Positions 3,036-37,548 are shown, counted from the first letter of the stretch. The stretch is DNA of 64,000 nt from Eledone cirrhosa (GCA_964016885.1 OZ024741.1:367722001-367786000); one strand, 5' to 3'. Notes: generated by a model not told the origin, from the letters alone. Made by a program: numbers and translations.

Positions 3036-3296
3036 TTTCTTTATTAACCACAAGGGTTTACATAAAGTAGACATTAAGGACAGTGCAGGACAATGCAGGA
3101 CGGTACAAATGGGCATTTCTGCGTGTAAAAAAACAAAAAACAGAGGATGTAACAAAAATAACAATGAAAATAACAATGAAAAATTCCCCAATAGGGGGGA
3201 GACTTCGGAGGGACATTTGTGGAGAAAGCCCAGTAAAAAGCCACAATGACCCTGACCACCAAGGCAAGTGCCCTCTCCCAGTTTTCCACCTTTAGT

Positions 3297-6200
3297 TTAC
3301 AGATATATACTCAGAGTCGGCCCATTCACTCGGGCCATTCTTGCTTCTCTCACCCATCTTTCAACAAAATGCTGGGAAGAGAGCACTTCCTTCTCTACTC
3401 TGATTTTCCTTTTCAAATGAAATTTGAAAAAGTCAATCAGAGCATCACCGAAGAGGTAAGTGCTCGTCTTCAGCCCTTTCAAACGTGTCCACCATACTAT
3501 CTCTTTCGCCATGGCCACCAGACAGATAAAAACTGCCTGCCCTTCCCGGCTAAAGGAGGAGGCCGGGGCAATCCTCACGATAGACTCAGATGATAGCTGG
3601 ATCCGTCCTAAACGCGACAGCAGGTGTTCGACATAAATCCACAAGTCAGCAATTTTCGGACACTGGACGAGTGCGTGCAGGACGGTTTCGTCGCCCTGCG
3701 CGCATCTCGGACATGCCCGGCTGACGGCACCTCCATGCCTGTAGAGTTTATCCCGAACTGGCAAGGCTCCTCGGTAGCACTGCCAGGCCAGAGATTTCTG
3801 GAAGTTGTCCATAGGCCCTGGCCCGAAAGTTCTTCCGAAGAGATTGGCTAGTTGATTTTCGTCGACGCCTAGAGTTTCCCCAAGTACGTCGTCGCTCTTC
3901 CCCTCCACTAATCCTCTATAGAACGCCGAGGTGGAGTTTCCACCGATCACATTGCCCGATTGGTCGAGGGCTGTGAGCGCCTGAAGACATTCCAGTCTCC
4001 AGGCGCTCCCTCTCGGTCTTCGCTTGACCCAGGACTGCAGCTCCGTCAAGGAAACGAGCTGGGGAAAAACGCGTCTAGCAAACGGCGACCACACCTGATC
4101 ACCGTCGAGGAAGAGGTGGAGATGTCGTAGCCTGAGCGCGTGCCTGCGCATCATCAGCCACGGCATGCCCAGCCCTCCACGTAGCGGGTGTTGACAACAG
4201 ATGGACCGCCTGACCATCGGAGCACGTCCCTTCCACAAAAAGCGAAAGAGCAAACGCTCCAGCGCAGTCAGGCGAGGCTTAGGACAAGGTACGGCGGTTA
4301 GGCGGTAGCAGATGACAGACGCGATGTACGCGTTAGCCACCTCCGCTCGACCTTTCAGGGATAGCTTCCTCTCCGCCCATTTCTGGGTGAGAGAAGCCAC
4401 CCTGCTCGTCACCTCGTCCCAGTTTTTGTCCGTCTGGAGGTCCGGACCGAACCAGACCCCTAGCAATTTAACCGGTCCGTCCGTCCAGCGCCCGACGACG
4501 CTGTTGGACGGCATGGATCTGCCTCTCCAGGTGCCGAGCTGCAGGCCCACTGACTTTTCCTGGTTGATCATTGCTCCTGTCACCGCTTCGTATTCTCTTA
4601 GTGTAGTGCCGATCGCCTCGATGTGTTTGGCGTTCGACACCACTACGGTGACATCGTCCGCATATGCTGACACGGATCTTCCGCATCCTAGTTCGCGCGG
4701 GACTCCCCTCAACGTCTCCAGTTTGTGCAGTAATGGCTCGAGAGTCAATACGTACAAGAGGGACGAGAGGGGACATCCTTGGCGGACCGAGCGCATGATG
4801 TTGAACGGTTCCGACAGGTGACCGTTCACTCTCACTACAGAGCAGATGTCGCTGTGCATGGCAGCGATCCAGCCTCTGAAGACGGGCCCAAAGCCAGCCG
4901 CCCTCAGGACTGCCGCTAGGTAACGATGGTCGACCCTATCGAAAGCTTTCGACTGATCTAAATTGATCAAGGACCCACCCGTGCCAGGTTCCCTAGCTAC
5001 CCTCTCTACGATGTATCGCATGAGGTGGAGGTTGTCGTGGATGGATCTGTCGGGAATAGCGCATGTCTGCGCCTCTCCCACCAGACCACCAACGACAAGC
5101 GCCAACCTCTTTGCTAGCACCTTGGCCAAAATCTTGAACTCTGTGTTTAGCAGAGTTATGGGCCGGAAATTATCTATGTTATCCCCCTTGTTCGGATCCT
5201 TTCTCAGCAGTGCCACCGCTCCTCGGCTCACAGAACTGGGAATTCTCCCGTTCTGTTGCCAGTTGCAGTAGACGTCCGCCAAGAGGCCTCCGAACAAGTC
5301 TGGCATCTGTACGTAAAGTTCATAGGGCAGACCATCCAAACCAGGCGATTTACCCCTTGTGCAGCCAGTCATTGCCTCCCGTACTTCAGCGGCTGTTATC
5401 GGCTTTTCGCAACACTTCGCCTCAGTGGCCGAGAGCCGCGGCAGTCCGTCGAGGTAGACACTAAAGTCCATCCCTCTACCCGGCCCCCCGCTGCCCCCGA
5501 ACAGCTGAGCGAAGTGTCGCTGAAAAGCTTCACACATTTGCCCGGGATCGAGTAGCATGCGCCCGTCGTGGTCCACCAAAGACCGGATCGTGGCTTTGTT
5601 GCCACGACGCGCCTCCGCCACTCGGGCCCATTGAACGGCTTTCGTCCCCTCGTGTCTGAGAGCACGCACCCTAGCTCTGACAACGCAGCCTTCGTGCTTT
5701 GCATTGAAGAATTGGTCAAGGGCCAATTTCGCCGCAAGCACGTCGGTCGCAATGCCTTTGCTAAGCGCCTCGTCTAATTTTCTAACTAGTTCTCCCTCTG
5801 CTCTATTTTTCTCTATTGCTAAAGCCTTACTAAACCTAATCGATTCTATTCTAATCGCTCTTTTCAGAGCAAACCACCACTTGTTGTTGACGATGGCCCC
5901 CGTCAACGCCCGCTTAACTAGTTCGCTAATCCGGTCTCTGTAGGCCTTGCGCGCTGGTAAGGACGCGTTTAGCTTCCAGTAGCCGGGTCCTCGTCTCTGA
6001 AGCCTATCTAAGTCAAGCACACAGATCACGAATTTGTGGTCCGTGTAGCTGACTATCTTGAATTGTGGACAGCCTATGCTAGACCTATCTATTTCCCTAC
6101 AAAATACTCTATCTAGATATGATCTGGATGACCCTATGCGGTTTGTCCAAGTCCACATTGGCACATTCGGGAAATCCAATCGGTACCTGTCAGACAGTTC

Positions 6201-26702: not shown

Positions 26703-26789
26703 ACCATTCCTTTTCGGAAAAAAGGCGATTGCAAGCATGTTGGAGATCACATTATATATATATATGGAGATCACATATATATATATATA

Positions 26790-27972
26790 TATTTGTTTTG
26801 CAAGCTTTTTTATATGAAATCGTGTGTTGAAAAAAATATTGTTATACTTGGGGAGGGTCATATTGTTATAATATTGCCAGAAATAACAATAAAACATACT
26901 CACTGTTTGGATAAATTAACTATGGAGATATAAAAGATACAGAGGCAAAAACCAATCCAAACCAAACATTGAGTGTGTTTTATTATTTCTGGCAATATTA
27001 TAACAATATGACCCTCCCCAAATATAACAATATATATATATTGTTATATTGTTGTATTTGGGGAGGGTCATATTGTTATAATATTGCCAGAAATAATAAC
27101 AGAACACACTCACTGTTTGGTTTGGGTTGGTTTACGCTTCTATATATTTTATATCTCCATAGTTAATTTATCTGGTAATCAATGTTTATCATTGATTGAC
27201 CAACGGGTAAAAATACAGATATAAACATATATATATATAGTCTATCAAAATTCTTTCGTTACACCTCTGTGACATCATCAGTGGTACTGTTATGTTTCCT
27301 CCCGATGTATTGTAATGCCTGCGCCATTTTTATTTTATTTCTTTATTTATTCTGGTCTCTGTCTGCACACACGTTTGCATGTGTTTCCTGTTTGATGTGT
27401 GTGTTCGTGTTTGAGTGTATGTGTATTCTATCTTTGTTCACTAGTATGTGTTTATATGTGTTTGTTGTTATTGTACTTGTGTATATATTTATTTATTTAT
27501 TTATATTTCCCTTAGGTCAGTATTGTTTGTTTGGGTATGGTTTTTGTTGTTATTCCATTCATTGTTTCTGTTCAATTCTGGTTTTCTTAGTTCTATCTCA
27601 GTTGCTTCTCTGATTTGCCTACCTATTGGGTCATTTCTATGCTTAGATATTATTTTAATTTCTATGTTGTCTATATTACCGTCATGTCTTTGTCTGGTGT
27701 GTTCATATAGTACTAATATTCTGATCGCAGACTTGATAAGAGTGATGAAGAATGTGTCCCGCATGTGCGACCCAGAAATAATAATAAAACACACTCACTG
27801 TTTGGATAAATTAACTATGGAGATATAAAATATACAGAAGCAAAAACCAACCCAAACCAAACAGTGAGTGTTCTGTTGTTATTTCTGAAAATATTATGAC
27901 AATATGACCCTCCCTAAATATAACAATATTTGTTTCAACACACGATTTCATATCAAAAACCTTGCAAAACAA

Positions 27973-27975
<3 letters not shown>
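26790..27975. repeat. Nested inverted-repeat family (26790-27175, 27772-27975; fragment at 22725-22805)
   Basis: Module GGGGAGGGTCATATTGTTATAATATTGCCAGAAATAA...ACTCACTGTTTGG repeated in alternating orientation. Confidence 0.8.
27245..27715 (-). mobile_element. Penelope-like element 3' fragment (GIY-YIG C-terminus, 3'UTR and hammerhead-like core)
   Basis: EH...H...IEIKII..HRNDPIGRQIREATEIELRKPELNRNNEW fits a PLE GIY-YIG end. CTGATGA-tgtcacagaggtgtaac-GAAA lies at about 27254-27281 on -. Confidence 0.65.
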
Positions 27976-28033
<58 letters not shown>

Positions 28034-28117
28034 AAAGTTTTATTTAAAATTGTTGGGTCACAACGAGTAAATATTTTATAAATGATATAAAAGCACTCAA
28101 CAGATTTTGGAGTATTT

Positions 28118-31044
28118 TACGATATTAAACAAATGGAAACTACATTTATAAAACCATATTTATTTCATTATATATATATTTCAGGGATATCACATTAAAA
28201 ATATGGTATGCCCTCTTCAGACAAAATACAATATATAAACAGTTTTATAAATAAATTTGACATACCTTAAAACTTTACAACTTCCATTTAAAAAGTTGTT
28301 ATGGTAGTGAAAATGTTAAGGACAGCTAGAAAGAAAGACGGAGAGAAAAAAAAAAGGAAAGAAAGTGTATAGTGCTAAGGACAGTTAGAGAGGAAGGTGA
28401 AGAAGATGAAGAAATGTATGTAAAGAAAAAAACAACAGAGCGAAATAGAGAGAGATATGGGAGAGAGAAACACTGAGGAGGTGAAAAATGAATAACGTAC
28501 AAATGAGAGATTTAGGAGGGAAGGGAGTACTGTAATCATTTATTTATTTATTTAGTTATAGTGTTAAGGATACGGAGAGAAATAAAAATAAAAATAAATA
28601 AAGAGAGGTAGAAAGAGATATAGGTGGTGGGAGAAAAGAGGTAGATCGAGTAATATCTATTATACGAGGTGGGTGAGATACAGGAGGCAGAGTTAAAACA
28701 GCCGATACATAAGTCCCGTCAAGTGTAGAGGGAGGAGGAGAAGAGATATATTCAGAAATAAAGATGATAGCTTTAAAATATTATGTTTCATCAGTCTATC
28801 AATTCTTATGAATTATAATGTAAACATCAATATTCATGAACGAGACACATATCAACAATGTGTGAAAAAAATAATGACCATATGTCTAGTTTAAAAACTC
28901 CTAGGTTTATAATCAAAATCTGAGATAAAACTTCAAAAAAAAAAAAAAAAAAAAAAAAAATACCGAAACACATAAGTACACATGTATTTTCATGAAAAAA
29001 GAAAAAGAAAAAAGAGATAGAAAAAGAGAAGGTCATCTCAAATTCAAGTTGACACTACAGACACACATGTGAGTCTACGTGATCAGCTCTGTAAATCTCT
29101 ATTTCACATGAAAATCTTCATTGCACCACAAAAGATTCTACCATACATACATCTACATACATATATATATACATAAAATATACATTATTAATAATAATAT
29201 TCTTGCCCTCTCTTACACGACCATCGTTCAAGCATAGAATAGAACAGATATCAATATATTAAAAACGCCAAGAGTATTTCACTCCCCAGAATATCTAGGG
29301 CCGCAAGAAAACACAGCGCGCCCCGCACACCAATCACAGAAATCAACCCCTCCAACCCACCCGACAATACATTGCCAAGTTCACCAGAAGCAATCAGAAT
29401 CAAAAGCAAACGAAACCAAAATTATTCAACAAAACTTATTTAGCAGAAATCATTAAAAAAAAAAACAAAAAAAAAAAAAAAACTTTAGGATACCCGGTTG
29501 CTCCACAGATGCTCCCACGTTCATTATAGAAGTCTATCTAGCTTGAAAATTTTATTCAACAGACCGGGAGCATCACCACCCTAAGGTAGTTCAACCACAT
29601 CATCAACTATATACTCACGAAGAAGGCCTAAAAAATTGAAGGAATCGAAAGACCTATCGCCAAGTTTCATAAATAACTAAAAATCTTAAGTAAACATACC
29701 ACATTTCAAATCTATACCCATACCCAAAAGTTGAGTTCAATCCATGTCCGCAGCAACCGAATAAATTGGTCCGTAAACCAAGGGAACTCCTAGATTTTAG
29801 CACAAAGAATATCTCCTTCGCGCAGAGGCCACACGTCCCAGAAGAGGAATCAAAAGGAATCCCTCATGAGACCACATTCCAAACCATCGAACATCCAACG
29901 CCATCACGCCCAAGCCGCCAGAGCAAGCCCGATAGCGACGTTGAAGACCCCCCGTCTGGATCCGTGAAAGAACTCCCGTGACTACTATAGCGAAGCCCAA
30001 ACTCTGTCGAGGTGGAACCAACATAATCAAAAGAATCCAAGTCAGTTCTAACATTACAGTTGTATACCATACCTTCAACTAAGCAATTGTTATTTAACGG
30101 GCATTTAGATCTATCTCTACAGTTACAGTTGTCTACTTGAATATTGTTTAGGCTATTATCGGCACCCTGGCTAGGCCCCAGATTCCCACCATTTATTCTA
30201 TCAACATTCTGTGCCAAATTTCTGGTGGACGAGCAGGTTAATTCCACAGTATCTCCATTGAAAATTGAGTGATACTCATGTGTTCTAGGGAAGCATTTGT
30301 CAAGAGCATTAAAAAATAGTTTAGCGATGTGGGTTTTAATGTTTAGTGAAAAAGGGGGGGGGGGGGGCAAACCAAATTATATTTCTAGTTCTATTTCTTT
30401 TCTGGTTTTTTGGAATTATTGTAATTCTTTCTATTATAGTTGTTAAAGTTGTTACCGTAATTAAAATTGTTGTTATTTTGGTTAGTTTGTCTATTATTAT
30501 CGATGTACATAATTTTATCACTATATCCTGCTCTAGCTAACGCTTCATTGTAATACTGGGCTTTTTGGTCGAAAATATTTTTATTAGATGAGATTCTAGA
30601 GATACGTTTTTGAACAGAGTTCACTATAGTATTTTTAACAGATCTGGGGTGGTTTGAGTTAAAGTTGACATAATTCAAGTTTTCATTTAACTTGTGAAAT
30701 GGATAGTGAAGATATGTGTTGCGATTTAATGTTACATCTAGGAAATTGACTATTCTCTGGTTATTCTCAATTTCTATTTTTAGATTAAGGTAATTAAAAA
30801 ATTGTATAATTTGTTTTCTTTTTCTATTTAGTTCAGAGTTATTATTTTCAATAAGTAAAAGCATGTCATCTCGATATAATCCTCCGGTAACACCGGGTAT
30901 TTTCCTATGCAGCGAATTAATTATAAATAGGCCCACAAGGTCTGTTACCTGAGCCATAGTAATGATCCCATAGTAATGTCGAAATTGTTATCTCTATCTG
31001 CCCTAGTCCATAGTTGGTTATTAAATTCTATCAATGTTTTCCTT
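28118..31044 (-). mobile_element. Penelope-like element, 5'-truncated (RT 30391-31044; Cys linker + GIY-YIG about 29740-30370), frameshifted
   Basis: FDITMGS, GLYRDD, VNFLDVTL, YVNFNSNHP, IIWF.PPFS, CNC....CPL, VY...YVGST and CGLC..E motifs. Confidence 0.9.
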
Positions 31045-31164
31045 CAAACTAACCAAAATAACAACAATTTTAATTACGGTAACAACTTTAACAACTATAA
31101 TAGAAAGAATTACAATAATTCCAAAAAACCAGAAAAGAAATAGAACTAGAAATATAATTTGGTT

Positions 31165-31195
<31 letters not shown>

Positions 31196-32519
31196 TTTTC
31201 ACTAAACATTAAAACCCACATCGCTAAACTATTTTTTAATGCTCTTGACAAATGCTTCCCTAGAACACATGAGTATCACTCAATTTTCAATGGAGATACT
31301 GTGGAATTAACCTGCTCGTCCACCAGAAATTTGGCACAGAATGTTGATAGAATAAATGGTGGGAATCTGGGGCCTAGCCAGGGTGCCGATAATAGCCTAA
31401 ACAATATTCAAGTAGACAACTGTAACTGTAGAGATAGATCTAAATGCCCGTTAAATAACAATTGCTTAGTTGAAGGTATGGTATACAACTGTAATGTTAG
31501 AACTGACTTGGATTCTTTTGATTATGTTGGTTCCACCTCGACAGAGTTTGGGCTTCGCTATAGTAGTCACGGGAGTTCTTTCACGGATCCAGACGGGGGG
31601 TCTTCAACGTCGCTATCGGGCTTGCTCTGGCGGCTTGGGCGTGATGGCGTTGGATGTTCGATGGTTTGGAATGTGGTCTCATGAGGGATTCCTTTTGATT
31701 CCTCTTCTGGGACGTGTGGCCTCTGCGCGAAGGAGATATTCTTTGTGCTAAAATCTAGGAGTTCCCTTGGTTTACGGACCAATTTATTCGGTTGCTGCGG
31801 ACATGGATTGAACTCAACTTTTGGGTATGGGTATAGATTTGAAATGTGGTATGTTTACTTAAGATTTTTAGTTATTTATGAAACTTGGCGATAGGTCTTT
31901 CGATTCCTTCAATTTTTTAGGCCTTCTTCGTGAGTATATCTCACCCCTCCCCTATCTCTCCCACCTCGTATAATAGATATTACTCGATCTACCTCTTTTC
32001 TCCCACCACCTATATCTCTTTCTACCTCTCTTTATTTATTTTTATTTTTATTTCTCTCCGTATCCTTAACACTATAACTAAATAAATAAATAAATGATTA
32101 CAGTACCCCCTTCCCTCCTAAATCTCTCATTTGTACGTTATTCATTTTTCACCTCCTCAGTGTTCCTCTCTCCCATATCTCTCTCTCTCTATTTCGCTGT
32201 TGTTTTTTTCTTTACATACATTTCTTCATCTTCTTCACCTTCCTCTCTAACTGTCCTTAGCACTATACACTTTCTTTCCTTTTTTTTTTTTTTTCCTCCG
32301 TCTTTCTTTCTAGCTGTCCTTAACATTTTCACTACCATAACAACTTTTTAAATGGAAGTTGTAAAGTTTTAAGGTATGTCAAATTTATTTATAAAACTGT
32401 TTATATATTGTATTTTGTCTGAAGAGGGCATACCATATTTTTAATGTGATATCCCTGAAATATATATAATGAAATAAATATGGTTTTATAAATGTAGTTT
32501 CCATTTGTTTAATATCGTA
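31045..32519 (+). mobile_element. Inverted duplicate of the PLE 3' portion (inverted pseudo-LTR)
   Basis: 31045-31938 is the reverse complement of 29608-30489, and about 31960-32519 is the reverse complement of 28118-28678. The translated GIY-YIG ORFs are identical. Confidence 0.92.
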
Positions 32520-32536
32520 TATATATATATATATAT

Positions 32537-32606
<70 letters not shown>

Positions 32607-32735: not shown

Positions 32736-35700
32736 ATGTATTCTTGTGGTTCGTGCTGGGATAATAAACAACTCACTGAAGGCGTTGGCATGATTCTACG
32801 TGTTTATTTACTTGGCATGTTTTTAGCGGATTGATACATACTGTGCATATCCGCCTTAGACACAGTTCCTACTGTTTGCTAGATGCGCTTAACAAAATAG
32901 TACTAATAGTGGGGATGTATTCATTGTTATGTATATCTATGCATACACATAGGTATGAACGTGTAACATCCCTTCTTCTTGAAAAAAAAAAGGATCTTTT
33001 GGCAATGAAAAAAGAAAAATAGAAGTAATCTCCCTTACACTAATGGATTGTCAGCGCAAGGGTGGCAATCCTGCAGCAGAAACCATGAGATTATTCTGCC
33101 CACACACGTGGTTTTCTGCTTCCTAATCTAGCAGAAATAGTTTTTTTTTTTTTTTTATCTTTTAACGGTATCGAATCGGTGGTAAAATGTTCGGTCTCCA
33201 TCTAGTGGATCTTGTGCTCTGCACTGGTGTCTGAGGTGTGTTGTTGGGCTGCTGATAGGTGGTTGGTGCCCGTTGGGGTGATGATTCTGTGGAAGCACGG
33301 ATTCTGTGTGTGTCGTCATCTGCTGTGGGTGTTGCGCATGTTATCCTCGATAGCTTTGGTGTTGGGCGGATGTGGGCCCTGTTACGTCTCAGCTGCCTAC
33401 CAGATTCAGTTTCTATAATATATGATCTTGGAGTTTCGGCTCTACTGACAACTTGTGCTGGGATCCATGTTTTGGTTATAGGATCTTGAGTATGCACATG
33501 CTGTCCTCCAAGTATCTCAGGTAAGTATTGTGCATGTTTGTTGTAATATTTCTGTGCTTGTTCTTGAGTGGCTGCTAGCTTTGCCCTTGTCTCTTCCTGG
33601 TCAATAGGCGGTTGGATCTTAGTTGGCAGGGTGGTTTTGTATTTCCTGCCATTCAGCATTTCTGCTGGGGATTTCATGTCAGTCCTCAGTGGTGTCGCTC
33701 GTAGGAACAGAAGTGCCAGGTGTGGGTCTTCCTTAGTTTCTCGGCATTTGACTAATGTTCTCTTGACTGTCTGCACCTATCTTTCTATGGGGTAGTGTGG
33801 AGATGAGGTTATGATGTTGAACCCATACTCATCGGCTAGCTTTTTGAATTCCTGAGATGTGAACTGGGTTCCATTGTCACATATGATCTGCTCTGGTATT
33901 CCTTGCTCTGCTAGGAGTCCTCGAGCCACTGTAGTTATTGTTTTAGCCCTCAGGTCTTTCACTTTTCTCACAAATGGGAATTTGGAGTAGTAGCAGACCA
34001 TAATCAAGTACCATTCTTGGTTCTCTGTGAACAGATCTACTCCAATAGTTTGCCATGGCCTTCTTGGAATGTCACTGGATATCATTTCCTCCTTTTGTTG
34101 TGAGTTTCTGTACTTTTGACAGATGTGGCATGTAGAAACCATCTTTTCTATGTCTTTGTACATGCCTATCCAATATACAGCTGACTTGGCTCGGAGTTTG
34201 CATTTTTCCATTCCCAGATGTCCTTGGTGGATCTTGACAAGAATCTCTTTTTGCATTGATTTGGGCATAATTATTCGGGATCCAGCCATCAGGATTCCAT
34301 TCTCCACTGATATGTCATCATGGATGGCCCAATATTCACGAATGAGGGGCTGCACCTGATGTCTCTTCTCTGGCCACCCCTGAATCACCATCTGAGTAAG
34401 AAGCTGGAGTTCTTCATCTTTGCTGGTCTCCTCTTTGATTTGTTCCAGCTTTGTGTTTGTCACATTTACAATGTGGTGGACCTTTACACTTAGTCCTTCC
34501 ATTTCCTGTTTATCATGTGAGGATAGTCTGGAAAGAGCATCCGCCAATATCAGGTCCTTTCCTGGCTTGTACCTGATATTGTAGTCATATTTTTGGAGCC
34601 TCAACAGTAACCTTTGCAGTCTGGCTGGTGCTTTTGTGAGTTTTTTTTTGTATATTTGTTCTAGCGGGCGATGGTCTGACTCAATATTGAAATATCTGCC
34701 ATACAGGTATGTGTGAAACTTTCACAGCCATATACTACTGCCAGGAGTTCCCTTTCAATGTTTGCATACCTTGTCTCTGTGGGTGAGAGAGCTTTCGAGG
34801 CATATGCAATAGGTTTACCTTCTTGTATCAATGCTGCACCAACTCCTCTCATAGAAGCATCAACTTGGAGTGTTACTGGTTTGCATCTATCATAGTACTG
34901 CAGAGTTGTCTCCTTACTGATGAGCTTTTTGATTGCATTGAAATCCTGTGTGTGCGATGCACACCAATCAAACTCTATGTCATCTTTCATTAGCTCTCGG
35001 AGGTTTGCAGTGTGATCGGCCAGCTTAGGTATGAAGGCTCCCATATAGTGGATGAGTCCCAGGAAGCTTCCGAGTTCCTTCTTATCTTTGGGTTCTCTGA
35101 TGTCACTGATGGCTTCCACTTTAGCGGGGTCTGGTTTCACTCCCTTTGCAGAGTATATCATTCCAAAAAATTTGCACTCTTTTGCTTTGATCACACACTT
35201 GTCTACATTGAGTTTGATACCTGCTTGTCGGGTTTTCTCCATAGCTTCATGTAAATTGAAGTCATGTGTGATCTCATCCTTGCCATGCACTTGGATATCG
35301 TCTGCTATCCCAATTGCTCCCTTGCAGCCTTGGTAGGCCTCATCTATTTGGCGCTGGAAAACATCTTGGCTCACCTTCAATCCAAATGGGAGGCGGTTGA
35401 ATCGGTATCTGCCAAATGGTGTGTTGAAGGTAGTTAGCATCGATGATTCTTTGTCTATCTTTACATTCCAGTACCCATTACTGACATCCAGTTTGCTGAA
35501 TATCTTGGATCCAGCTAATGATGGTGTGATTTCTTCAAGGGTTGGAATTGGGTAGTAATCTCGTTTTAATGCCATGTTCAGATCTCTTGGGTCGAGGCAT
35601 ATTCATAAGGTACCATTGGCTTTTTCTTTGATTACAATTGAATTCACCCAGTCAGTTGGTCGTGTCACTTTGGTGATTATTTCCTTTTTCTCCATTCTGT

Positions 35701-37548
35701 CTAACTCTGCTTTCAGCTTCTCTTTTAATTCCAGCGGAACGCGGCGAGGTGGGTGAACAATTGGTTTGGCATTGGGGTCGACTGTTATATGGTATCGACA
35801 ATTCTCAAAACACCCGACTGTATCGTCAAAGCATTCTGGGTACATGCTTATCAGTTCTTCTTTATTTGTGATTGGTGGTCGGTCTTCGATAGGCATATCT
35901 CTGTCAATCCTGCTTGGAGCTGCCTTCACTTCCCCGTTGATTGACACAATATTAAGCCTTTGACAGGTATTAAGTCAAAGAATTGCAGGTCCTTCTGTTC
36001 TTGTGACATAAAAAGAACACTTGATTATTTTTCCTTTGTGTCCCTGTAATGGTTGTTTTGCCCAGTTGTGGAATCCTGGTACCTCCGTATGCAGTGAGGA
36101 TTACAACACTTGGTGTGAGGATTCCTTCCTTGACTTTATCCTCTTGTGTCATGTGTTCTGGGAACATCTTTTTGTAGAGGTTGACAGGCAAGATATCACT
36201 CTGGGCTCCAGTGTCAATCTTTAGCTTTAAGTCAATGTTTATTCGTTTCTTGCCTGACGTCTTTTGGATTTGTATTGTTGTGTATGCTTCATTTTTTTCT
36301 GGTTGTCATTTCCCATCTCATGTACATTTATTGTGCCGACTGCCAAGAATTCCTCCCCTGAGGTGTTTTCTTCCTGTTGTTGGGCATGTATGTCTCTTTG
36401 TCTTCTCTTTCCGCTCCTCTTTGGAAACTGGGGCTTGTATTTGTGAGATTTCGTTAGTCTACACATTTTTCCCCAGTGGTTGGGCTTTCCACATGCTTTG
36501 CAGTGTGTACCGAATGCAGGACATTTCGTCCGGTCATTGAACTCATGCTCTGTACCGCAGTACTGGCATGTTCTCTGTTTGTGGGTATGTTTCGTTCTAT
36601 GTCTGGATGCAATATCTACACTGCTGCCTATTGTGTTTGTTTGTAAAGTAAGTTAGGCCATTTGTTTGGTAGTGGCTTCGAATGCTCTTGCAGTGTCTAC
36701 TGCTTCCATCAACTGGAGAGCGTCCTTACCTATGAGGGATTTCTGGACTTCTTTGTGAGCACACCCCCATATGAGTTGATCAACAATCCTTTCGTCCTTG
36801 TCTTTGAATCTGCATTTCTCGGCAACATTCTTTAGTCTGGACAGGAAGTTGTCAATTGTTTCTTGTGGGTCTTGTGTCAGGCCTTGGAATTCGTACCTAT
36901 GAATTCTATGGTTTGATCTGGGCTCTAGGTGCCTTTCAAATTTCTCTAAAAGTGTGTCTGGATGATTGCAATCCGATTCTGACATGTCCCAACTAATGAA
37001 TAGGTCTAGGCTCTTCTCTCCCGTCCATAAAAGGATGTAGCTTACCCTTTCATCGGCAGTTGTACCTTTCAGGAAGCTTCTGAAAGCAAATTGAGTTTTC
37101 TGATTGAATTTCTTGAATGCTTCCGCGATATCATCGGCGTCCCAGTTCATGGTCGGATGTAGATTCATCTGTACGGCGACGGTGGCCGCCATTTTGGATT
37201 CTCGTGTGTGTGTACGAAGACGAAGTGATATTCAGTTTGTTAAATTTCAGGTTTGTTGTGTTCCTGTTTTGTTGTAAAGGCACGGTTTTCGATTAAGTAT
37301 TTATCGCTGCCACCATGTTATGTATTCTTGTGGTTCGTGCTGGGATAATAAACAACTCACTGAAGGCGTTGGCATGATTCTACGTGTTTATTTACTTGGC
37401 ATGTTTTTAGCGGATTGATACATACTGTGCGTATCCGCCTTAGACACAGTTCCTACTGGTTACTAGATGCGCTTAACAAAATAGTACTAATAGTGGGGAT
37501 GTATTCATTGTTATGTATATCTATGCATACACATAGGTATGAACGTGT

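Follow-up and report, generated by a model that had tools for sequence, protein, structure and literature searches.

Clustered sense-strand A-to-G changes in genomic copies of a Penelope-like element of Eledone cirrhosa suggest retrotransposition of ADAR-edited RNA

To our knowledge, A-to-I RNA editing has so far been treated as non-heritable. The closest described systems are exogenous retroviruses, in which A-to-I changes on the template RNA become A>G changes in DNA by reverse transcription: the accessible text of PMC8586724 cites ADAR-linked A-to-G hyper-editing in RAV-1, avian leukosis virus and HTLV-2/STLV-3. Vertebrate LTR retrotransposons "DNA-edited" by APOBEC also carry strand-biased, clustered deaminase hypermutation in their genomic copies, in the form of G>A changes via C-to-U on the cDNA; in the accessible parts of these reports, a screen confined to LTR elements found no such editing in 19 invertebrates (PMC4866542, PMC2873906). 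Finally, ADAR hyper-editing of repeat-derived dsRNA is described in transcriptomes, where edited RNA is set against unedited DNA (PMC4365171, accessible part). A literature search, with subscription journals mostly outside its reach, returned no report of ADAR edits fixed in genomic copies of non-LTR or Penelope elements. The locus of Eledone cirrhosa analysed here resembles the retroviral case in its likely route, the APOBEC case in strand bias and clustering, and the transcriptome case in substitution, clustering and neighbour motif. In contrast to these systems, the changes are A>G with an ADAR motif, lie in the DNA itself, and affect a non-viral, invertebrate Penelope-like element at no fewer than 19 independent loci fixed in the host assembly. 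Here A-to-I editing appears to have mutated an animal genome repeatedly, and the assembly alone suffices to read this.

The window, that is, the whole stretch of 64,000 nucleotides analysed, corresponds to C2:367722001-367786000 (GCA_964016885.1 OZ024741.1) of the 3.0 Gb E. cirrhosa genome. It contains a Penelope-like insertion at 27973-32520, a single event made of a minus-strand, 5'-truncated main arm and an inverted arm, lying between two (TA)n runs (27979..28031 at the left edge and 32520..32603 at the right edge) that are the likely target; the extent originally predicted, 29250..31938, was too small. The main arm (27973..31044) begins at position 927 of an intact copy of 3871 nt, L096, and carries the C-terminal half of the RT, a CxCx5C linker, a GIY-YIG endonuclease and a long 3'UTR/pLTR. 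The inverted arm, on the plus strand, has a proximal part (31045..31939) that copies 30489-29609 and a distal part (31946..32520) that copies 28687-28118 past an internal jump of ~920 nt. Leaving A>G changes aside, the window copy diverged from its nearest copies by only ~0.7% (19/2854 sites), indicating that the insertion is young. At 30950-30965, next to a GATC, a 10-nt word is repeated nearly in tandem as a result of three private changes within 6 nt, probably by a local template slip of the RT.

The family has at least 1732 genome matches to one 24-nt motif and comprises two main subfamilies. L096 has a single open frame of 749 residues, with an RT containing YRDD followed by a C-terminal GIY-YIG endonuclease (IIY...YVG...R...H...E...N), and we found 37 homologues of a length similar to that of its protein. 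Since the L096 protein had no match in Pfam or PDB, its assignment is motif-based, and on these motifs we would class the window element as Penelope-like with Hydra-clade features. As in the Hydra-clade PLEs of PMC8557442 (accessible part), we observed a CxCx5C linker (CNCRDRYKC, residues 608-616, with the first two cysteines and C616 conserved in homologues), DKT and not DKG (SDKTNN at residue 125), an RW motif (RIRWR at residue 43), and an endonuclease that, judged by eye, has no CCHH and bears CxxC and CxH around the conserved E and N (CDLCAEE, NLFSCCRH). Also alike were the (TA)n targets, seen at both edges of the window insertion and in family matches that stop at the same TA run, and the inverted 5'-truncated arm; a putative hammerhead-like motif may be a further likeness. 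Unlike those elements, the present one is ~3.9 kb long as against "generally <3 kb", and has RWR, not RWK, its homologues having RWK or RWR; editing goes unmentioned in the accessible text. The pseudo-LTR arrangement was apparent from the inverted arms in the window, 46 head-to-head junctions in sampled copies and 5' truncation, and partial tandems were present in L086, L090 and L093.

A minimal hammerhead-like core was predicted in both subfamilies by pattern match and fold. In the window, one lies at 28179..28220 (minus strand; CUGAAGA, long stem II, GAAA, palindromic UAUAUA, with one edit in loop II) and a second at 32419-32460 (plus strand), in the distal part of the inverted arm. The architecture resembles that in PMC4209133 (accessible part), cleavage is predicted, and an Rfam scan of the window returned no hammerhead match. 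The predicted cut, at ~3713, adjoins the starts (element positions ~3704-3714) of the upstream partial tandems L090:4297-4434 and L093:7013-7157, which suggests that the 5' end of the element RNA may be ribozyme-made. The L086 tandem begins at 3051 and reads through the predicted cut.

The original prediction was that a hyper-edited transcript of this element had been retrotransposed. In a first comparison, between window 28000-31044 and the majority base of 28 other genomic copies, sense-strand A>G accounted for 158 of 197 substitutions (T>C 6, C>T 13, G>A 3), and the RT part 30300-31044 had a single A>G. Against the seven nearest copies, over 2854 sites of the main arm, we counted 152 A>G, 3 T>C, 2 G>A, 4 C>T and 10 transversions. 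The edits were concentrated in a hyper-edited tract (28825..30277, minus strand), where 146/472 A were changed, as compared with 0/300 in the unedited RT part upstream (30278..31044, minus strand, with a poly-C run at ~30355-30367) and 6/223 in the sparsely edited 3' part (28059..28824, minus strand; 28059, 28193, 28326, 28471, 28537 and 28688). A sites preceded by G were changed at 3/69, against 142/398 for the others (p=1e-8; A 69/175, T 55/160, C 18/63), and the window copy taken alone showed no 3' G preference (15/46, p=0.87). APOBEC-type clusters of sense-strand G>A were not encountered, with 3 G>A against 158 A>G. The large sense-strand A>G excess, its clustering, its depletion after a 5' G and the absence of the G-rich changes from sister copies had all been predicted, and the hyper-editing feature is real and far beyond chance. 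The G-rich translations likewise sit where they had been reported, and do so twice, in the minus-strand main arm (30489-29609) and in the plus-strand inverted arm (31045-31939), into which the reported stretch 31547-31573 falls. Two details fared less well. The ancestral peptides that had been proposed by changing G back to A were partly wrong, the intact L096 reading FNRHTIKLTYSS, FKLRYNNHKNSF, DPNKKSST, LSGLLWQLKHDNVGYSMVW and CDLCAEE, and the G-richness described for the 3'UTR held overall but was patchy (16/41 at 29500-29599, 0/19 at 29400-29499 and 15/24 at 29300-29399).

We then turned to the rest of the genome. A hot-spot pattern with G at two or more of five sites gave 21 matches, corresponding to 19 loci (17 matches with a stricter version), and all 19 were A>G-dominated in the element sense: A>G numbered 33-252 against 0-21 T>C at 14 loci, and 25-133 against 0-6 at the remaining five. 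The T>C changes of L091 (11) and L094 (21) looked scattered, and we did not read them as editing of an antisense strand. With a mirror T>C pattern, less sensitive because its sites were not picked from known hot spots, there were 0 matches, and none of 75 other loci (a few of them overlapping) had an arm dominated by either A>G or T>C. Thus, with 21 edited against 1732 unedited motif matches, the edited fraction of ~1% is a lower bound. A hot-spot pattern for the RT region, whose sensitivity is limited since it missed L131, a copy edited there, gave two matches, L088 (by construction) and L128 (not hyper-edited). Pairwise edit overlap among the 19 loci was at most 0.51, and no second-generation copy was found. 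L003 and the window had 75 edit sites in common and 55 and 54 private ones; L003 lacks the window's subfamily markers and belongs to another subfamily, yet has hot spots in common with the window. The edit events at the 19 loci are therefore independent, and about 1% or more of the family copies arose by such editing, each separately.

Pooling 14 loci, we obtained edit rates of 0.258, 0.257, 0.148 and 0.081 after a 5' T, A, C and G, respectively (G 83/1021, p=3e-35), and of 0.310 (238/767), 0.243, 0.189 and 0.176 before a 3' G, A, C and T. This finer order agrees with the preferences of ADARs. The ADAR motif, with G depleted upstream and enriched downstream of the site (accessible part of PMC4365171), was present on its 5' side in both the window and the pooled data, and on its 3' side in the pooled data only. 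A possibility that does without any RNA deaminase was that the element RT had put C opposite A in bursts, in an error-prone state or under dNTP imbalance. Independent copies with A>G on the sense strand only would follow from this as well, and the RT is visibly slippery, as seen from the change in poly-C length and the template jumps. However, bursts of misincorporation predict neither the two-sided neighbour motif nor the fixed-position boundary described below, and polymerases deal poorly with an A:C mispair as substrate; we consider this explanation very improbable.

Repeats are hard to assemble, and edited RNA reads or sequencing errors could have been imposed on the genome sequence during assembly or polishing. 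The edited stretches were found with 0 differences, at depth 3-12, in Logan contigs from three runs of one sample, X1-X3, whose kind is not on record. Genomic RAD-seq X4, from sample S2 of another study, provided five raw reads matching at 98% or better, four of them at 99% or better. These span ~29634-29768 on both strands, and because that interval contains 16 edits, an unedited copy could not pass the read filter. This support consisted of one fragment plus one read in one of three runs; X5 and X6, from a reduced-representation library, had no read in the edit-rich part and were uninformative. S2 is possibly the same animal, and its reads favour inheritance, short of proof, and speak against an assembly artefact. 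Each of the 19 loci also has its own edit set, and an artefact of this kind seems to us close to inconceivable.

Edits were on the sense strand throughout, inverted arms included, and were common to the main and inverted arms in the window, L085, L090 and L091. The window arms were identical over 881 aligned bases: 31045-31939 had zero substitutions relative to 30489-29609, with all edits in common, and the sole difference was a poly-C run 14 C longer in the inverted arm. In the distal part, the edits at 32096, 32162, 32313 and 32446 were also common to both arms. Both arms thus come from one edited molecule, the template of the inverted arm being that edited RNA or the cDNA copied from it. 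Copying from an antisense arm of the transcript is ruled out by these common sense-strand edits; the data fit either a fold-back on the cDNA or double priming from both target strands. In vitro, a Poseidon protein is able to cleave both strands of the target and to extend them (accessible part of PMC11167929). The edits act as barcodes for a poorly understood mechanism, since they mark sense RNA as the template and the two arms of an inverted insertion as one molecule. Identity over 881 bases could also come from GC-biased conversion between arms, and one may invoke neutral decay, that is, ordinary DNA change after insertion. Such change should produce T>C and A>G in equal numbers and is already contradicted by the strand asymmetry (152 A>G against 3 T>C); moreover, edits continue past the part that is duplicated, into 29608-28825, and are present in copies with inverted arms that miss the tract. 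We give it virtually no credence.

The upstream end of the tract was similar in most of the informative copies; it is the only informative end, because all copies were chosen by edits near 1970. Thirteen edited copies extend upstream of position 1600. In eight of them, from both subfamilies, the tract starts at 1623, 1630, 1657, 1657, 1667, 1681, 1690 or 1691, a 70-nt zone directly past the poly-C run at 1604-1614; other starts were 1733, 1855 and 1962, and two exceptional copies started at 1186 and 1197. In 17 copies, the two exceptions being left out, 4/920 A were changed at 1400-1599 versus 358/1358 at 1660-1899. The zone was noticed after the fact; among copies found later, L129 (1681) fits, L132 (1733) is near and L131 is a misfit. 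With such a starting point, editing leaves out the RT and falls on the endonuclease.

Inverted-arm copies are common, so a hairpin or antisense RNA was available in principle as pairing partner. The element RNA has no long internal inverted repeat, and a hairpin parent with a preferred junction as cause of the boundary is unsupported, unless there were few source loci, given that 0/46 inverted-arm junctions fell between positions 1488 and 1805. The private A>T marker of the window copy, used to look for its parent, matched the window's own two arms only. As for an antisense polyadenylation signal, ATTAAA is found at 1654-1659 in the minor subfamily only; the major subfamily differs there yet has the same boundary, and such hexamers are common. 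Our best guess for the partner is an antisense RNA stopping near the corresponding G run. Six copies (L083, L084, L085, L087, L091 and L130) are truncated at 1692-1880 and edited right to their 5' end, which may reflect RNA cleavage or RT arrest in an inosine-rich duplex.

Alternatively, a first reverse transcription could have stalled near poly-C and left an RNA:cDNA hybrid whose RNA strand was edited by ADAR, the edited RNA being recopied afterward. This accounts for the common boundary without antisense RNA, it agrees with the lean of edited copies to truncation beyond 1600 (6/19 against 4/44 other copies, not significant at p=0.054), and extension of both target strands by the Poseidon protein (PMC11167929, accessible part) lends it some plausibility. 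On this account, an unedited first copy and T>C from an edited DNA strand would be anticipated. However, with identical edits in the two arms, there is no surviving first copy free of edits, no T>C of this origin is seen, and the 5' ends of unedited copies do not pile up at 1600-1700 (0/44). Perfect hybrids are, in addition, poor ADAR substrates. We judge editing within such a hybrid to be very unlikely.

Collectively, the data are best explained by retrotransposition of a template RNA that had been edited by ADAR, an explanation in which we have high confidence, ADAR being deduced as the enzyme. This supports the original reading, and every test proposed with it fell out as predicted, including recurrence across the genome (19 loci) and presence in independent short-read data (Logan contigs and raw RAD-seq). 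Sense RNA would first pair with antisense RNA over the endonuclease region and the 3'UTR; the common start zone past the poly-C run suggests a partner with an end set by the element. ADAR, to go by the motif, would then deaminate ~31% of the paired adenosines. The element RT, probably supplied by another transcript or made before editing, would read inosine as G during target-primed insertion into (TA)n, and the inverted arm, whose edits are those of the main arm, would arise from that edited RNA or from its cDNA. If ADAR did edit the element RNA before copying, normally temporary RNA edits would become inherited mutations. The genome encodes an ADAR2 that is 95% identical to that of Octopus vulgaris. 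Matches to the adenosine-deaminase domain were located at C6:13.64 Mb, C1:146.45 Mb, C25:17.35 Mb and C1:320.73 Mb; the first is ADAR2 and lies in a single open frame of 700 codons, apparently intron-poor.

Conserved nonsynonymous sites were edited at 92/272, other nonsynonymous sites at 666/2058 and synonymous sites at 211/750, so damaging edits have not been selected against. It is likely that a different RNA supplied the mobilising protein, or that this protein predated the editing. Four full-length edited copies were altered at E712G (L086), N724D (L090), Y642C and H735R (L093), and Y629C and N724G (L094), residues to which GIY-YIG motifs would assign a catalytic role. These edits suggest that an RNA can be mobilised without encoding a working endonuclease. 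The tract of the window copy (28825..30277, minus strand) contains N724G, K651G and Y572C, together with a stop codon changed from TAG to TGG at 29700. That copy has lost its first ~300 codons and has, inside the tract, a premature TGA at 29866 (minus strand) due to A>T, which is not an edit; it is therefore dead regardless of editing. The weaker part of the original reading, ADAR-based inactivation of the endonuclease, thus finds no help in the window copy, but is favoured by the full-length edited copies, 4/4 of which lost at least one conserved endonuclease residue with the RT nearly unedited.

More tentatively, and with doubt outweighing belief, we propose that antisense RNA made by the element and ending at the poly-G/C run aims germline ADAR at the endonuclease half of the element's own transcript. 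At least 1% of new insertions would therefore be single-molecule records of germline RNA editing, the full-length ones RT-intact and endonuclease-crippled; RNA editing would in this way repeatedly become inherited mutation, and might also brake transposition in a self-limiting manner. Apart from this proposal, the edited copies read as a record of ADAR activity, site preference and dsRNA extent in DNA-transmitting cells. A screen for A>G clusters in non-LTR and Penelope families across genomes could test these readings.

Incidentally, short hairpin repeats lie beside (TA)n runs at 26775-27120 and 27772-27990, with arms (26775-26896 and 27869-27990) that are 91% complementary and a palindrome near 26949-27133; they probably form a MITE-like element, and their Rfam miRNA matches were below cut-off. 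On the other side, the minus strand of 33162-36305 presumably harbours a Ty3/Gypsy-type LTR retrotransposon, to judge from motifs resembling protease, RT, RNase H and integrase in open frames that are split over several frames.
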